Assembly: GCA_963705305.1 (NCBI GenBank)
Contig: OY970067.1
Span: forward strand, 3,744,001-3,808,000
Length of the DNA stretch: 64,000 nt
Source of the DNA: an uncultured Methylomirabilota bacterium
Lineage (GTDB): Bacteria; Methylomirabilota; Methylomirabilia; Methylomirabilales; 2-02-FULL-66-22
Reading direction: 5' to 3'
This document shows positions 27,625 to 49,774 of this stretch, piece after piece. The notes under the pieces are model-generated. The model made no database searches, was not told where the DNA came from, and saw nothing but the letters and a program-made list of their open reading frames with translations. The first letter of the stretch is position 1. Each line of letters starts with the position of its first letter. The translations under genes were made by a program, and so were the position numbers.

Positions 27625-28118
27625 TCCGTCTGATAGCAGGCGACAATCTCGCCGAAATAGAGCGTGTGGTAATCCTTTTTCGGATAGATTTCATCGAGCT
27701 CCCTGTCCAGCATTTTTGGATCCAGGGCACTCTTGTACAGCCGTCGACACTCGTAATGGTAGCCCGGGATATCGAGCACCGGGGAACTGACCTTCTGGGC
27801 GTTCCGCGTGGCGAGCTTGCACTCCTTGAGCTTGTCGACCGTCCGGCCGGACATCGAGCCGCAAAACTCAAGCTCTTTTCGCATGTCCGTCGTCGGCACG
27901 CTGATCGTGAAGCTCTCCGCACCTTCCATCAGCCCGAAGGTGTGCCGGCTGTTGCGCACGGCGACCATGAAAACAGATCGCCGCCAGAGAATTCCGACGA
28001 GGCCCCAGCCGATGGTCATCACATTCGTCCGGCCACCGGACGTGACGGTCAGAAACGCTCCCTCCTGGATGTGCTTCATGATGGGCGGGACGATGTCAAA
28101 TTCATTTACCTTCTTCAT
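27621..28118 (-). CDS. Flavin reductase-family protein
   Basis: NVMTIGWG, VRNSRHT, CGSMSGRTVDK, YHTLYFGEI. Confidence 0.88.
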   Translation of the reverse strand: MKKVNEFDIVPPIMKHIQEGAFLTVTSGGRTNVMTIGWGLVGILWRRSVFMVAVRNSRHTFGLMEGAESFTISVPTTDMRKELEFCGSMSGRTVDKLKECKLATRNAQKVSSPVLDIPGYHYECRRLYKSALDPKMLDRELDEIYPKKDYHTLYFGEIVACYQTE

Positions 28119-28537
28119 AGGGGATCTCCGTTTCGGAAAATATCTCACCGCCAAGGCGCCAAGCATGGCATGGCTGGGATGACCAGAATGCCAAAGGTCT
28201 GGAACCGCGTCACGTCCCCTGGGGGACCGTTCCGGTGCCCCGAATCACAGTCGCCGGACTCCAGGGACTGTGGAGCCTTGGCGTCATGGCGCTTGAACCG
28301 TTCTTTCAGTTCAACGCCAGATGGAATGCAATCTCTATATCAAAATCGCGAACACATAACAATTCAAATCACCCCCGCTCCCTGACCTCATGGTTCGCTC
28401 CATTGAAATTCCTGCCCGGGTGGTTCGGCTTTGCATATTCTGGGCGGCTCGCCTGGACGAACCCCTTGCGCCTGACCCGCTTCCGGCGCAGAATCGGGCG
28501 GCGAGAATGACCCGTCCCCCGGAAAGGAGGAAGATCC

Positions 28538-44518: not shown

Positions 44519-44995
44519 CTATTTTTCCTCAAGTGGGATCTTCGTCTCGAACTTGGAGCAGTTCATCGCAAACAGACTCATAAAGTTGCTGACATTGTTG
44601 GTGTTGGTGAAGAGGTGCCTCGTGAAAAGATGATAAACCTCCATTGATGTTGCAGCCACAATCAACAAGAAGTCCCACTCTCCTGAAACCTCATAACACG
44701 CCATAACGTCGGGCTCCTGGCTAATCCTCTTTTCGAATTCCCTCAGCCGCTGGTCATTCTGGGTTTCGAGTTCAACTGTGACGAAGATCGTGAGCGGGTG
44801 GCCCACCCTAACACGGTCGACGAGGGCGACTTCCTTGAGCAGAATCTTGTTGGCCCGCAATGCGGCGATGCGTCGCTGGCAGGTTGCAGCCGATGCATGC
44901 ACTATCTCTGCCAGCCTCCGAAGTGGGATGGTGGCGTTCTCCTGAAGGACATTCAGGATCCGAATGTCGAGACGATCAAGATTTACGCTTCCCAT
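44519..44995 (-). CDS. Lrp/AsnC-family transcriptional regulator
   Basis: LDRLDIRILNVLQEN, CQRRI, CYEVSGEWDF; upstream TTGACA-16-TATATT on the minus strand (45130-45103). Confidence 0.9.
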   Translation of the reverse strand: MGSVNLDRLDIRILNVLQENATIPLRRLAEIVHASAATCQRRIAALRANKILLKEVALVDRVRVGHPLTIFVTVELETQNDQRLREFEKRISQEPDVMACYEVSGEWDFLLIVAATSMEVYHLFTRHLFTNTNNVSNFMSLFAMNCSKFETKIPLEEK

Positions 44996-45145
44996 AATCT
45001 CATTGTCTCGCAATGATGCATTCTTGGTGCAGTTTCATCTCTTATATGGAGGTATTTGGGTTGATGCGTAGCGTTTCAGTCTTCATTCTGAAATGGTTTC
45101 TCAATATACTCCACTGTATGGTGTTGTCAAGGTCCTGGATAGCGC

Positions 45146-46665
45146 CCCTAATCTCCGGCTAAGAAGTTGAGGGGGATCGCGAATCACGCAGCGGCCCGCA
45201 GTGCGCGCGGCCCGCGGGGTTGGCATCGGCCTTGCTTGGTTTCACCCAGTGGGTGCAAACACCACAAGGAGGAGAGCGATGCCCGACACCTCGCCCCGGT
45301 TGCCGTTCGAGATCGATGACGCGATCGACCCCACGCTGGTCACGGGCCGGGCCGGGGTCCCGCTCGTGATCGAGCTGTTCCGCCAGCTCGGGGTGGCCCA
45401 GGCCGTCGACACCCACGTTGCGGTCAAGCAGCGGCAGCGCGGATTACCCCCCTCGCAGCTCGTGGAGAGTCTCGTCGCGTTGTGGACGAGCGGCGGGGAC
45501 CGCTGCCAGGACCTCACGACGCTCCGGGAGGATCAGGCCCTGGCCACGCTGCTCGGCTACCCCCTGCCGGCCGCGACCACGGTCCGGGACTTCCTCGAGG
45601 CCTTCCACGTGGAGGACGGGCCGCTCTGGGTGGCCGGGCCCGCGGCCACGGTCCCCCTGGAGTCCGCCCCCTTGGCGGGCCTCGGACAGGCGAACCGGAC
45701 GCTGGTCGCGGGCGTCCAGCGCGGGGCCCGGGCGGCGACGGCCACCCTGGATGTGGACGCGACGCTCGTCGAGAGCCACAAGGACGCGGCGACCGTGGCC
45801 TACGACGGGACCCGGGGCTACCAGCCCGTCGTGGTCCTCTGGGCCGAGCACGATGTCATCGTGCACGACCAGTTCCGCGATGGCCAGGTGCCCGCCGGGT
45901 GCGGCAACGTGCGCGTCCTCGAACAGGCGGTGGCCAACTTGCCCCAGGGCGTGGACCGCATCTCCCTGCGGGCCGACAGCGCCCTCTACGAGACGGAGGT
46001 CCTCCGCTGGTGCGAGGAGAAGAAAATCGCCTACGCGATTAGCGCCGATATGTCCGCGCAGCTCCAGGCCGAGATCCGGCGCCTCCCCGCGGCCGCCTGG
46101 CAGCTCGAGCGGGAGGAGCCCGAGGCGATCCGGGCCTGGGCCGAAGTCCCCTACGTCCCCGAGGATGGCGATCACCGGAAGGCGCGGCCGTGCGTTCGCC
46201 GCTACCTCGCGGTGCGTATCCAGCGACGCCAGGGGAGCCTCTTCGCCGACGGGAGTAGCGTGCAGTACTTCGCCGTGGTCACCAATCGGCCGGAGGATGG
46301 GCTCACGATCCTCCGGTGGCACCGGGAGAAAGCAGGGACCATCGAGCACACCCATCACGTCCTCAAGACCGAGCTGGCGGCCGCCGCGCTGCCCAGTGGG
46401 AAGTTCGGGGCGAACGCCGCCTGGTTCCGGCTGAACGTGCTCACCTACAACCTGCTCACCGCGCTCAAGCGGTTGACCTTACCCGGAGATCTCCGGACCG
46501 CCCGGCCGAAGCGTCTCCGGTTCCTGCTGTTCAACACCGTCGGGAAGGTCGTCGCGCATGCCCGACGGACGCTCTTGCGGCTCTCGGGCGCCCTGCAGCA
46601 CGCCTTGCTCGTCCGGGCGCGGCGCAAGATCGCCCGGCTGGCCACCGCTTAGCCGGAGATTAGGG
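45146..46665 (+). mobile_element. IS1380-family insertion sequence, apparently intact
   Basis: 18-bp perfect TIR CCCTAATCTCCGGCTAAG; 6-bp TSD TAGCGC (45140-45145, 46666-46671). Confidence 0.92.
45279..46652 (+). CDS. IS1380-family DDE transposase
   Basis: TLDVDAT, GYQP, LRADSA, IEH...LK, PSGKFGANAAW; RBS AGGAGG. Confidence 0.92.
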   Translation: MPDTSPRLPFEIDDAIDPTLVTGRAGVPLVIELFRQLGVAQAVDTHVAVKQRQRGLPPSQLVESLVALWTSGGDRCQDLTTLREDQALATLLGYPLPAATTVRDFLEAFHVEDGPLWVAGPAATVPLESAPLAGLGQANRTLVAGVQRGARAATATLDVDATLVESHKDAATVAYDGTRGYQPVVVLWAEHDVIVHDQFRDGQVPAGCGNVRVLEQAVANLPQGVDRISLRADSALYETEVLRWCEEKKIAYAISADMSAQLQAEIRRLPAAAWQLEREEPEAIRAWAEVPYVPEDGDHRKARPCVRRYLAVRIQRRQGSLFADGSSVQYFAVVTNRPEDGLTILRWHREKAGTIEHTHHVLKTELAAAALPSGKFGANAAWFRLNVLTYNLLTALKRLTLPGDLRTARPKRLRFLLFNTVGKVVAHARRTLLRLSGALQHALLVRARRKIARLATA

Positions 46666-46673
46666 TAGCGCCC

Positions 46674-46930
46674 TGTGGTAGCTCAGCAAACTTGTCCGCC
46701 TCTAACAGATCAGGGATTCTGTCCGCTCTCGTAGAGAGGAGGACAGATGACCCTGACTCCCGAGGAAGCCCGACGCGTGCACGTTCTCACCCTCCTGGAG
46801 GGCAAGCGTATCACTCCCGCGCAGGCGGCCGAGGCGGTGGGACTCACCGCCCGGCAGGTCCGGCGCTTACGGGCCCGGCTCCGGCGGATGGGCCCGGGAG
46901 GGCTGGTCCATGGCAATCGGCGCCGCCTCA
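46674..46930 (+). pseudogene. Left end and truncated transposase (from 46747) of an IS1202/ISNCY-like element
   Basis: TGT-starting end with repeated ...TGTCCGC motifs; N-terminal HTH AAEAVGLTARQVRRL...GLVHGNR, then loss of similarity. Confidence 0.65.
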
Positions 46931-47124
46931 CGCCGCCTCAGCGCCCCCGATATTGCCCGGATTCCCCTTGACACCCCTGGCTCGCCAATGGTAGCGTCCC
47001 GGCCGTCGCGTGTTCGTCGCGCGCCTTAAGGGCTTGTCGAGGAAAAACCTAAGGCGGCGAGCAATGACACGGGCTCGGAGGGTCGCGCGAAACCGCGCTG
47101 AGGCCAAATTCTACGGAGGCTGCC

Positions 47125-47307
47125 ATGCCCGACATCGTTATTAAGCCTGAGGAAATCGTAGTCGACAAGAACGGTAAAGTGACAATCAAGAACGAAGCAT
47201 TCAATAAGGCTGTTGAAAAAAAGCTGGGCAAGAAACGATCGGATGTGGAAGGACAAGGTGCGCAGGATTTCTTTGATCATGGGTGCATCAATAGATGCAG
47301 CCGCTGA
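47125..47307 (+). CDS. Putative RiPP precursor peptide, 60 aa
   Basis: RBS GGAGG; Cys only in the C-terminal DFFDHGCINRCSR; immediately upstream of a radical SAM gene. Confidence 0.7.
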   Translation: MPDIVIKPEEIVVDKNGKVTIKNEAFNKAVEKKLGKKRSDVEGQGAQDFFDHGCINRCSR

Positions 47308-47430
47308 TCCTGACGACAAGATAAACCGGCGGGCAATCTAAAGCACGATCCGGTCCGGACGAGGAAGCGTCCGAAGAGAGTAAATGTGTGGAACGCTTCT
47401 CGTCCGAATCCGGGCGGCCCATAGCAGCAT

Positions 47431-48426
47431 ATGGCCTCATTAAGCATATCGCAGCTTGCGAATCTCCTTTCTGTTCGTGCATGGCATCTCATAATAATCC
47501 CCACTGAAAAATGTAATTTTAAATGCACGTATTGTTACGAAACGTCCAATACGAGCATGATGAAACAAGAAATTGTCGAGGCGATTAAGACGCTCATCAG
47601 CCGACGACTGCCCGAACTTGACACGCTATATGTCGGATGGTTCGGAGGGGAGCCGTTATTGGCAAGAAATGTCATCAGGGATATTTCTAAGGACATCAAG
47701 GGCCTGGCGCGGTCTTACTCAAGCCTGAAGTATAGGGCCGGAATGGCAACCAACGCCTATTTTTTGACGCCGTCCCTTTTATCCGAGCTGGCTGAACTCG
47801 GCATATCTGACTACCAGATAACGCTTGACGGTCCCCCGGAGATTCACGACAAGCGTCGCGCAACTGCCAACGGCAGGGGGACGTTTGATCGCATATGGAA
47901 GAACCTGATAGCCATACGGGACAGCTCTGAGCAGGTACGTGTCCTGCTGCGTATCCATTTCGATCCTTCCGGGATCTCCCATTTGGGTGTTCTCGTCGAG
48001 GATGTGCGCCGGGAGTTTCTGCCGGACAGGAGGTTCACGGTTCATTTCCAAGCGATAAGACGCCTTGGTGGAAAGGACGATTGCCAGATTCGGATATTTT
48101 CGGCTTCGGAGGAACGGGACCAAATCCGAATGCTTCGACAGGCGTTGTATAAGGATCGGAGGTATCAAGAGACCAGGGAGCCGCCCTACGTGTGCTATGC
48201 CTCTCGACCCAACTCCCTGGTAATCTATCCAAATGGTGATATCGGCAAATGTACAGTGGCTCTGTACGATCCGATTAATAGGATCGGCTCGATAAATGCG
48301 GACGGAACTGTAAACATTGATCCGGAACTTCTGAGATTATGGTCACGCGGGTTTATGGCAAAGCCCGACCTCTCGACCCTGTGTTGCCCTCTGAAGAACT
48401 TTCCGAAGGCTCCGAGTCGTCTATAA
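47431..48426 (+). CDS. Radical SAM enzyme with a Twitch-like auxiliary Fe-S region (putative peptide maturase)
   Basis: CNFKCTYC, WFGGEPLL, TN, QITLDG, CYAS...GKC, terminal CCP. Confidence 0.9.
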   Translation: MASLSISQLANLLSVRAWHLIIIPTEKCNFKCTYCYETSNTSMMKQEIVEAIKTLISRRLPELDTLYVGWFGGEPLLARNVIRDISKDIKGLARSYSSLKYRAGMATNAYFLTPSLLSELAELGISDYQITLDGPPEIHDKRRATANGRGTFDRIWKNLIAIRDSSEQVRVLLRIHFDPSGISHLGVLVEDVRREFLPDRRFTVHFQAIRRLGGKDDCQIRIFSASEERDQIRMLRQALYKDRRYQETREPPYVCYASRPNSLVIYPNGDIGKCTVALYDPINRIGSINADGTVNIDPELLRLWSRGFMAKPDLSTLCCPLKNFPKAPSRL

Positions 48427-48625
48427 ATAAGAAGAAGGTCCCGGCGTTATCAATCGAAAAATTGGCTGCACGGTGACGCGGGAGTGGCGGTATTTGTTCC
48501 TATATTTGTGTCTAGATATCCTGCTTCCATTGAAGTTGACCCCACCCTGAGGTCATGGGAGGATCCCTGGCTCGGAGGTGGCCATGGGCGACTACACAGG
48601 CAATGATCGGCAGGAGGACACGCGC

Positions 48626-49774
48626 ATGCAGTCGCCCCGCCTTGATCGTGCGGCGGTGCTCGATCTCCTTCAGCAGTTGATCCGCATCCCCTCCGTAAAT
48701 CCCTCACTCGTTCCGGAGGAGGCATCCGGGGAGGCCGCCATCGCCGCCTTCGCCCGCGACTGGCTGGCCGAGCATGGCCTCCGGGCCTGGCTGGAAGAGG
48801 CGGCCCCCGGCCGGCCGAACGCCGTGGCCGAAGTGGGCGGCGGCGAAGGTCCGACCCTGGTTTTCTGCGCCCACTTGGATACAGTCGGAACGGCCGGGAT
48901 GACCATTTCCGCGTTCGAGCCCCGCCTGGAAAGGGGCCGCGTCTACGGCCGGGGAAGCTACGACATGAAGGGGAGCGTCGCCGCTGTGATGGCCGCGGCG
49001 GTCGCCCTGGCCGGCGAGGGGCTCGGGGGTCGAGTCCTGTTGGCGCTGGTGGCGGATGAGGAGTACGCCAGTGTGGGGGCCGCCGACTTCGTGCGGCGCC
49101 ACCGGGCAGACGCCTGCGTCCTTACCGAGCCCAGCGAAAGGAGGCTCATTCTCGGCCATAAGGGATTCGTATGGGCGGAAGTACTGACAACCGGCCGGGC
49201 CGCCCACGGCAGCCGCTGGGACCTCGGGGTGAGCGCCATCGGCAAGATGGGACGCATCATCGCCGCACTCGAGCTGTTCGACCGGCAGGCGCTCCGGGAA
49301 CGGGTGCACCCCCTGATGGGCCCGGCTTCCCTGCACTGCGCCCTCGTCCAGGGCGGTGCCGGCCTCTCGACCTACGCCCCCGAGTGCCGCCTTCAGGTGG
49401 AGCGGCGGACGCTGCCCGGCGAGACCCCCGAGCAGGTCCGCCAAGAACTGGAAGCGGTCGTCCGGCAGGCCGGCGAGGAGGCGGAGGTTCGGTGCTTCTT
49501 CGACCGGATGCCCCTTCTGTGCGATCGGGAGGCGCCGGTGGTCCATTGCGTCCGGGCGGCGGCGGCGGCCGTGACCGGGCAGCCGCCTGTCGAGGCCGGC
49601 GTTCCGTACTGGACGGATGCCGCTATCTTTGCCGCGGCCGGGATCCCCACCGTGGACTATGGCCCCGCCGGGGCCGGCGCACACGAGCCAGTGGAGTGGG
49701 TGGACCTGGACTCTGTCCTCACCTGCGCGGAGGTCCTCGTCGAAGCAGCCCGCCGGTTCTGCCGGCCGGCCTGA
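48626..49774 (+). CDS. M20-family metallo-amidohydrolase (ArgE/DapE-like)
   Basis: AHLDTV, GRGSYDMKG, DEE, TEP, GRAAHGS, AH. Confidence 0.92.
   Translation: MQSPRLDRAAVLDLLQQLIRIPSVNPSLVPEEASGEAAIAAFARDWLAEHGLRAWLEEAAPGRPNAVAEVGGGEGPTLVFCAHLDTVGTAGMTISAFEPRLERGRVYGRGSYDMKGSVAAVMAAAVALAGEGLGGRVLLALVADEEYASVGAADFVRRHRADACVLTEPSERRLILGHKGFVWAEVLTTGRAAHGSRWDLGVSAIGKMGRIIAALELFDRQALRERVHPLMGPASLHCALVQGGAGLSTYAPECRLQVERRTLPGETPEQVRQELEAVVRQAGEEAEVRCFFDRMPLLCDREAPVVHCVRAAAAAVTGQPPVEAGVPYWTDAAIFAAAGIPTVDYGPAGAGAHEPVEWVDLDSVLTCAEVLVEAARRFCRPA

Follow-up and report, generated by a model that had tools for sequence, protein, structure and literature searches.

A short open reading frame (ORF) and a radical S-adenosylmethionine (SAM) enzyme gene lie in tandem at positions 47125 to 48426 of a 64,000-nucleotide stretch of DNA from an uncultured Methylomirabilota bacterium (assembly GCA_963705305.1, contig OY970067.1, positions 3,744,001 to 3,808,000), and very likely encode a peptide substrate and the enzyme that modifies it. 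This whole stretch, as analysed, is referred to here as the window. The cassette is probably a two-gene locus for a peptide that is made by the ribosome and modified after translation (RiPP), in which the maturase would act as a thioether cyclase, independent of a RiPP recognition element (RRE, the domain by which leaders are normally bound), on D51–C54 and/or N56–C58 of the precursor. An earlier inspection of the window, here termed the original prediction, had proposed a candidate new RiPP system at this position. No named family was found for it, in keeping with that proposal, but the system is not a one-off, being a member of a family with at least 576 genome loci. The short ORF with a strong ribosome-binding site (RBS) and a cysteine-bearing tail, and the CxxxCxxC enzyme with its CYAS, GKC and CCP segments, were all located where they had been described. 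The features of the cassette are as follows.

47125..47307, + strand: precursor peptide gene, 60 residues plus stop; leader-profile match; homologue P0122 syntenic in metagenome contig L086
47115..47119, + strand: ribosome-binding site GGAGG, 5 nt ahead of the precursor ATG; kept in the L086 alignment
47155..47187, + strand: conserved leader motif, residues 11–21 (IVVDKNGKVTI), predicted beta-hairpin; from the alignment of 22 precursors and the complex model
47266..47304, + strand: core region, residues 48–60 (DFFDHGCINRCSR), with C54 and C58; from the sequence and the complex model
47431..48426, + strand: radical SAM/Twitch peptide maturase gene, 331 residues plus stop; from Pfam PF04055 and the family alignment
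47512..47535, + strand: CxxxCxxC motif (C28, C32, C35) of the radical SAM [4Fe-4S] cluster; conserved without exception in the 20 aligned family members
48193..48390, + strand: Twitch-type C-terminal domain, C255-x13-G269-x4-C274 plus C319; all four residues invariant in the 20-sequence alignment

The precursor peptide and its pairing with the maturase

The precursor (MPDIVIKPEEIVVDKNGKVTIKNEAFNKAVEKKLGKKRSDVEGQGAQDFFDHGCINRCSR) contains only two cysteines, C54 and C58, both of which fall within the final seven residues, in a tail with one DxxC and one NxC arrangement (DFFDHGCINRCSR). Its sole sequence homologue in a search of 5.8 billion proteins was P0122, a peptide of 61 residues with 76% identity. 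On contig L086, P0122 occupies the same position, ahead of an enzyme fragment that is ~77–78% identical to the maturase, and the RBS is kept. Over the first 46 aligned codons, which cover the leader and linker upstream of the core, the two precursor genes differ by 10 synonymous and 11 non-synonymous changes. An indel separates the two cores, with FFDxGC…RC retained. None of nine precursors tested reached a cut-off in Pfam or NCBIfam, and the matches of the window precursor to PAS_9 (18.6 bits, cut-off 27) and TIGR04540 (18.8 bits, cut-off 50) were taken as noise.

Neighbourhoods of the enzyme were compared across 80 loci. In many of these, a small ORF beside the enzyme encodes a motif resembling I-x-V-D-x-x-G-R-V-V-I-x-x-P-x-L-A and, behind it, a tail with Cys. 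Across 22 precursors the motif [hydrophobic]x[hydrophobic]DxxGx[V/I]x[I/V] can be aligned, with G17 invariant, and the window ORF carries it next to the maturase (as hxhDxxGxVxI, h being hydrophobic). A leader profile was built from 48 seeds from other genomes, with the window left out, and was searched against 8082 small ORFs from both strands of the 80 loci and the whole window. This search returned 57 matches at E ≤ 0.01: the window ORF, which was the single match within the window (E 0.0023, 16.7 bits), and 56 others spread over 46 of the 80 loci. Of these 56, 46 stand immediately upstream of the enzyme on its strand; another 9 follow it closely on that strand, and the last is on the opposite strand. 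Near the enzyme, on its strand, the seed pattern fits 51 of 1359 small ORFs, compared with 7 of 6014 others. As a whole-genome control, ORFs of 20–150 residues were taken from the 5.6-Mb genome to which the window belongs; the precursor ORF was the one match (E 0.014) among these 50,908 small ORFs, with nothing else at E ≤ 100.

Elsewhere in the window, a 124-residue ORF at 27808–28182 (+ strand) fits the loose leader pattern, probably by chance, and is missed by the leader profile. In other genomes the leader hairpin motif can occur twice in tandem ahead of a single Cys core, as seen in L003 (3412–3843), L041 (3687–3974) and L064 (3457–3801 and 3909–4340).

The enzyme–peptide complex was predicted from alignments of both chains, with SAM and two 4Fe-4S clusters as added ligands. 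The median score over three runs was 0.86, compared with 0.00 for the highest-scoring of three controls. Among 157 solved complexes 116 attain that mark, as do 2 of 215 mismatched pairs, a calibration that is only rough here given the use of our own alignments and the added ligands. The runs share at least 51% of their contacts, and the predicted local distance difference test (pLDDT) value of the partner is at least 67. Leader residues 11–21 touch enzyme residues 55–59, 260–263, 293–296 and 298–305 in the model, with the lowest expected error, which puts the leader hairpin on the Twitch sheet; core residues 46–57 are placed in the barrel interior, with contacts at 253–256, 275–277 and 318–319, beside C255, C274 and C319. 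The enzyme contact residues R59, N261, G292 and W304 are invariant in the family. The complex model, which passed its controls, supports binding of the peptide by the enzyme. The precursor-plus-maturase reading of the original prediction is thus upheld by the synteny of P0122, by the leader motif in 46 of the 80 loci and by this model.

The maturase and its family

The maturase falls within the radical SAM superfamily (PF04055, 66 bits against a cut-off of 29.5, E 6e-18). It is full length, at least 44% identical to the family and has every residue that is invariant in the 20-sequence alignment, which places it among the family members. Outside the CxxxCxxC motif, C255 is found in the context CYAS, C274 in GKC and C318–C319 in CCP; of these, C318 is an extra cysteine of the window maturase that is not conserved in the family. 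The maturase does not show the seven-cysteine pattern of the SPASM subfamily: no CxxCx5Cx3C block, the part that accommodates a second auxiliary cluster, and no match to the Pfam SPASM model (PF13186) at E ≤ 0.01 was found in it, whereas the Twitch half-motif Cx9-15Gx4C is present and is invariant in 20 of 20 aligned members. On the strength of its sequence, this pattern marks the C terminus as a Twitch domain with one predicted auxiliary cluster. Because only three cysteines (C255, C274 and C319) are available for the auxiliary cluster, an open iron site is implied.

The six top-scoring NCBIfam models are all for maturases of Cys-containing peptides, namely TIGR04463 (158 bits, cut-off 525), Clo7bot (129 bits, cut-off 600), geopeptide (122 bits, cut-off 400), CefB (110 bits, cut-off 600), PapB (87 bits, cut-off 340) and CcpM (72 bits, cut-off 500). 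The alignments start at profile position ~80–100 for five of the six models and at position 5 for PapB, which has no RRE. They end in the first half of the SPASM region for TIGR04463, geopeptide and CefB and inside the radical SAM core for Clo7bot, PapB and CcpM. These starts and ends indicate that an RRE and a second auxiliary-cluster motif are missing from the maturase. No PqqD-type Pfam match was found in the maturase, the cluster motif of which begins already at residue 28, and no conserved small neighbour protein besides the precursor was found in the 80 loci that would point to an RRE encoded nearby.

The precursor and maturase share one reading frame (47026–48426), with three stop codons between them and a spacer of 123 bases ahead of the enzyme ORF. 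As this shared frame is accompanied by NCBIfam matches that start at profile position ~83, the idea of a pseudogene was tested. A broken fusion, with the precursor as the remnant of a lost N-terminal RRE, was rejected; homologues of 255–417 residues have the same N terminus, and their peptides are separate ORFs. The shared frame was judged to be a coincidence, and the maturase is whole rather than truncated. A role in defence was likewise rejected, PADLOC having given weak viperin matches confined to the radical SAM core.

An AlphaFold2 model of the maturase was built from a 20-row alignment (mean pLDDT 80.3, predicted template modelling score 0.82). The closest solved fold is that of CteB (Foldseek E 3.8e-12, template modelling (TM) score 0.68 on the query), followed by anSME, ChlB, BlsE, DesII, EpeE and SkfB.

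The search of 5.8 billion proteins yielded 3582 candidates, of which 1975 match the maturase at E ≤ 0.001. Among the 120 matches listed, lengths range from 255 to 417 residues and identities from 44 to 78%, with an N terminus in common with the window protein; P0002, which is the window enzyme's own shorter gene call and 100% identical, is excluded from this range. A typical family enzyme has ~320–360 residues and no RRE. When one genome per species was scanned, at least 576 of the 603 candidate stretches proved to encode relatives, which are found in the Bacillota, Cyanobacteriota, Actinomycetota, Pseudomonadota, Acidobacteriota, Planctomycetota and other phyla.

Accessory genes are scattered across the 80 loci. 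A C39-peptidase ABC exporter (PCAT) occurs in 13 loci, HlyD in 6, a CHAT/TPR protein in 12 and a protein binding cyclic nucleoside monophosphates (cNMP) in 6. Most loci have no conserved accessory gene, so the two-gene unit may be the norm. In the 12 loci with the CHAT/TPR protein (e.g. L067, 283–3468), this is a protein of ~1060 residues with TPR repeats and a CHAT (caspase-like) domain; its gene lies upstream of the maturase gene in the same orientation, and it may serve some family members as a leader protease or regulator.

Core residues, proposed chemistry and genomic setting

Core composition was analysed in 54 distinct Cys-containing cores, with identical cores merged, the Cys-less core of L039 dropped and the window excluded. 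Asn is found at position −3 of 63 of 156 cysteines, against a shuffle mean of 16.8 (standard deviation 3.7), and none of 2000 within-core shuffles reached 63. Gly is frequent at positions −1 (49 of 156) and +1 (43 of 151) relative to Cys. With the window core included, Cys is present in 55 of 56 distinct cores, and 28 of the 56 have exactly two. Aromatic residues are scarce in the family cores (F 1.6%, Y 0.9%, W 0.2%). The original prediction had called for homologues to be inspected for a conserved adjacent peptide, and this check came out in its favour, with leader-profile matches in 46 of the 80 loci and NxxC in 40 of the 54 cores. Its statement that the core matches no nameable class did not hold, the hallmark of the family being Asn at −3 of Cys (NxxC). 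It had also left open a thioether or a cyclophane as the product; because of the NxxC hallmark a thioether, of the kind made by NxxcB, is favoured over an aromatic cyclophane, for which the scarcity of aromatics in the cores also speaks. In the window core, D51 is at −3 of C54 and N56 is at −2 of C58; the core of P0122 has DTGC and NIRC. The family also includes precursors with a repeated core, GIFDNCSC occurring twice in one peptide, and loci in which three or four precursor genes stand in tandem (L034, 3634–3900; L014, 2916–3706; L050, 2812–3913).

In the mechanism proposed, the leader beta-hairpin (IVVDKNGKVTI) would dock onto the beta-sheet and helix of the Twitch domain, and the C-terminal core would thread into the barrel. 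A core Cys thiol would then bind the open iron of the auxiliary cluster, and the 5'-deoxyadenosyl radical would abstract hydrogen from the residue at −3 (or −2) relative to that Cys (D51, N56). Coupling of the resulting carbon radical to sulfur would give a small thioether ring, with a loss of 2 Da per link. A bond from Cys sulfur to an alpha carbon would make the product a sactipeptide, and one to a non-alpha carbon a ranthipeptide. What the analysis shows is the gene pair and its conservation, the leader family, the bias of the family cores towards NxxC, the Cys pattern of the maturase and the foreign composition and patchy distribution of the cassette; peptide binding, the thioether chemistry, the choice of carbon and the making of a product in the host are what we infer. 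More tentatively, the family may be an undescribed RiPP class spread across many phyla, in which a minimal RRE-less enzyme with a single open-iron auxiliary cluster reads a beta-hairpin leader through its Twitch domain and forms Asn/Asp(−3)–Cys rings; this extension is plausible, though somewhat less likely than not. If it is true, an uncharted set of small thioether peptides is encoded in hundreds of genomes (of Nostoc, Streptomyces, Bacillus, Xanthomonas and others), along with a way of recognizing leaders that is new.

The surroundings of the cassette contain the following features.

~47050..48550, no strand assigned: low-GC island with the cassette; GC 0.48–0.55 versus 0.65–0.77 in both flanks
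45146..46665, + strand: intact IS1380 element (transposase 45201–46652); NF033539, 267.8 bits versus a cut-off of 180
46747..46971, + strand: truncated ISNCY-like transposase helix-turn-helix (HTH) fragment, 74 residues; NF033594 and Pfam HTH_23; ends at the left edge of the island

The original prediction had described an AT-richer cassette beside remnants of insertion sequences (IS), which agrees with the GC of 0.48–0.55 and with the ISNCY-like fragment and intact IS1380 upstream. The genome as a whole has a GC of ~0.70, compared with ~0.50 in the island. The IS1380 element ends in perfect 18-nt terminal inverted repeats (CCCTAATCTCCGGCTAAG), whereas the match of the HTH fragment to NF033594 (36.6 bits, cut-off 250) covers only profile positions 5–49 of 368. 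The maturase gene is present in single copy in the genome. A search of 40 relatives (20 from the genus and 20 from the order, completeness 63–100%) gave no match to the enzyme at E ≤ 1e-20. Foreign composition, IS neighbours and this patchy distribution support horizontal acquisition, as had been proposed. No flanking repeats were found around the island. An M20 peptidase gene at 48578–49774 has host-like GC and is 78–80% identical in two congeners without the cassette, with which no other neighbour is shared. It is therefore taken as a resident gene outside the cassette and, as the only gene shared, does not allow an empty insertion site to be defined.

No exporter or dedicated protease adjoins the cassette, the nearby M20 peptidase being host-like and present in congeners, so this part of the original prediction stands as well; no PCAT, HlyD, CHAT/TPR or cNMP-binding partner was found at the locus. 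A sigma-70 consensus scan, which is blind to other promoter types, gave no promoter-like site at the cassette, and a terminator scan picked out a single candidate site, within the enzyme gene, where shuffled sequences gave more.

Two further loci in the same genome were noted. An AsnC/Lrp-type regulator is encoded at 44519–45013 (− strand) in a second lower-GC stretch (0.50–0.56), with the IS1380 element between it and the cassette; the two stretches may be one foreign island split by IS insertion. Outside the window, at G000:C1:4172134-4175145 (L082, L083), there are two adjacent longer radical SAM frames of 558 and 751 residues, with weak similarity to the maturase of the cassette (E 7e-16 and 3e-11), and this region could be another peptide-modification locus.

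Several observations weigh against the reading of the cassette as a locus for an RRE-independent thioether cyclase. The maturase passes no cut-off among the curated NCBIfam families, its best score being 158 bits against 525, and 34 of the 80 loci have no leader match at E ≤ 0.01, some of them being cut short or having divergent leaders. The leader profile is not fully blind, since the seed pattern was written after the peptides had been viewed, a point that is offset by the genome-wide control. The complex model, for its part, is a prediction and does not measure binding. The window core has no canonical NxxC but DxxC and NxC, and the NxC spacing is unlike the NIRC of the closest homologue. 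As the enzyme is of the Twitch type and every Asn–Cys synthase cited below is a SPASM enzyme, the chemistry is carried over from the substrate motif and from a general likeness to Cys-peptide maturases, and not from orthology. Finally, as there is no exporter, leader protease or immunity gene at the locus, a mature secreted product is not assured.

The alternatives can be weighed on the same evidence. The same substrate–enzyme pair might carry out other chemistry, such as a sactionine link to the alpha carbon of another residue, epimerization, oxidation of Cys to formylglycine or a Phe-Phe-His cross-link. Twitch enzymes catalyse varied reactions, anSME and EpeE are among the closest solved folds, the maturase fits no curated thioether-synthase family, and the window core has FFDH beside Cys without a canonical NxxC. 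Against this, almost every distinct family core has Cys (55 of 56), the position three residues ahead of Cys is strongly biased towards Asn and aromatics are scarce, so that we give other chemistry a minor though appreciable share. For an epimerase in particular, the hydrogen donor in EpeE-type enzymes is a Cys (C223 in EpeE, going by PDB entry titles and general knowledge); the three conserved non-SAM cysteines of the family all fit the auxiliary-cluster pattern, which leaves no conserved free Cys for this role.

The cassette might also be a true family member that was brought by IS activity and is stranded, being silent or without a mature product in this genome. Such an outcome would fit the IS1380 element and truncated ISNCY-like fragment directly upstream, the lack of a promoter-like site in the sigma-70 consensus scan, the absence of the PCAT, HlyD and CHAT/TPR partners of other loci, and the single copy of an enzyme that was not found in 40 relatives. 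It is given about the same minor share as other chemistry; against it, both ORFs are intact, the maturase keeps every invariant column of the 20-sequence alignment, the RBS is strong, the two-gene unit may be the family norm and the promoter scan does not detect other promoter types. That the small ORF is a chance or unrelated frame, with the radical SAM enzyme acting elsewhere, is very improbable. The lone sequence homologue among 5.8 billion proteins and the modest leader-profile score (16.7 bits, E 0.0023 to 0.014) would allow it, but the ORF is the sole match in 50,908 small ORFs, its synteny and RBS are kept in L086, the complex model scores 0.86 against 0.00 for controls, and such peptides clearly adjoin the enzyme throughout the family. 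A substrate–enzyme pair with thioether chemistry therefore remains the reading that we prefer.

Relation to known systems

No description of this enzyme–peptide family was found in the literature searched; subscription-journal papers and bioRxiv supplements lie outside that search, and earlier work may exist there. Neither the enzyme nor the peptide is covered by a Pfam or NCBIfam model, and Protein Atlas gives only generic "radical SAM protein" cluster names. A compendium of 15,000 proteins gathered only RRE-associated enzymes (PMC10288494), a scope in which an RRE-less enzyme would not be included. Genome mining for radical SAM RiPPs leans on the RRE and SPASM domains, and a large family with neither would escape such screens. 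If docking of the leader on the Twitch domain is true, the cassette would be a compact two-gene system of ~1.3 kb for small thioether-constrained peptides and a new example of leader reading without an RRE. For this genome the meaning is modest, the locus being one foreign, possibly silent cassette.

Among known systems, NxxcB/NxxcA resembles the cassette in having the acceptor three residues ahead of Cys in the substrate. NxxcB links the beta carbon of Asn to the sulfur of Cys and also takes Asp, Gln or Ala as acceptors (PMC9389541); in the working model published for it, the thiol sits on an auxiliary cluster and hydrogen is abstracted at the acceptor (PMC9389541), and two auxiliary clusters are described for it (PMC11851443). 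QmpB and SycC similarly use radical SAM chemistry to connect the sulfur of Cys with an Asn upstream of it, with an Asn alpha carbon to Cys sulfur link in the former (PMC11851443) and an Asn19 beta carbon to Cys22 link in the latter (PMC10989515); all three are described as SPASM enzymes. Going by its description, NxxcB differs from the enzyme examined here in belonging to streptococcal operons linked to quorum sensing and in its SPASM domain, as opposed to a 331-residue RRE-less Twitch enzyme with another leader in other taxa. QmpB forms a thioether at the alpha carbon, whereas SycC, which makes AviCamCys, needs a LanD-like decarboxylase that is not present here.

The solved structures give a second set of comparisons. 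CteB, the thermocellin/SCIFF thioether synthase (PDB 5why and 5wgg), is the closest solved fold and also the closest PDB sequence (E 5e-9) and has a Cys-rich peptide as substrate, but it has ~450 residues, with an RRE at the N terminus and a complete SPASM domain, and its identity to the maturase is only 16–18%. EpeE (YydG) is of similar size (~320 residues), and both EpeE and SkfB appear in the fold search at E ~1e-8. Both have just one auxiliary cluster, and an RRE is absent from EpeE. EpeE, however, epimerizes its substrate and SkfB makes a sactionine, TM scores are only 0.47–0.60, and their substrates have no leader of the window type. The remaining matches include ChlB, a cyclophane synthase, and anSME, which oxidizes Cys to formylglycine. 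Set beside these systems, what is predicted to be new here, within the known radical SAM thioether RiPPs, is the minimal architecture together with an RRE-independent reading of the leader.

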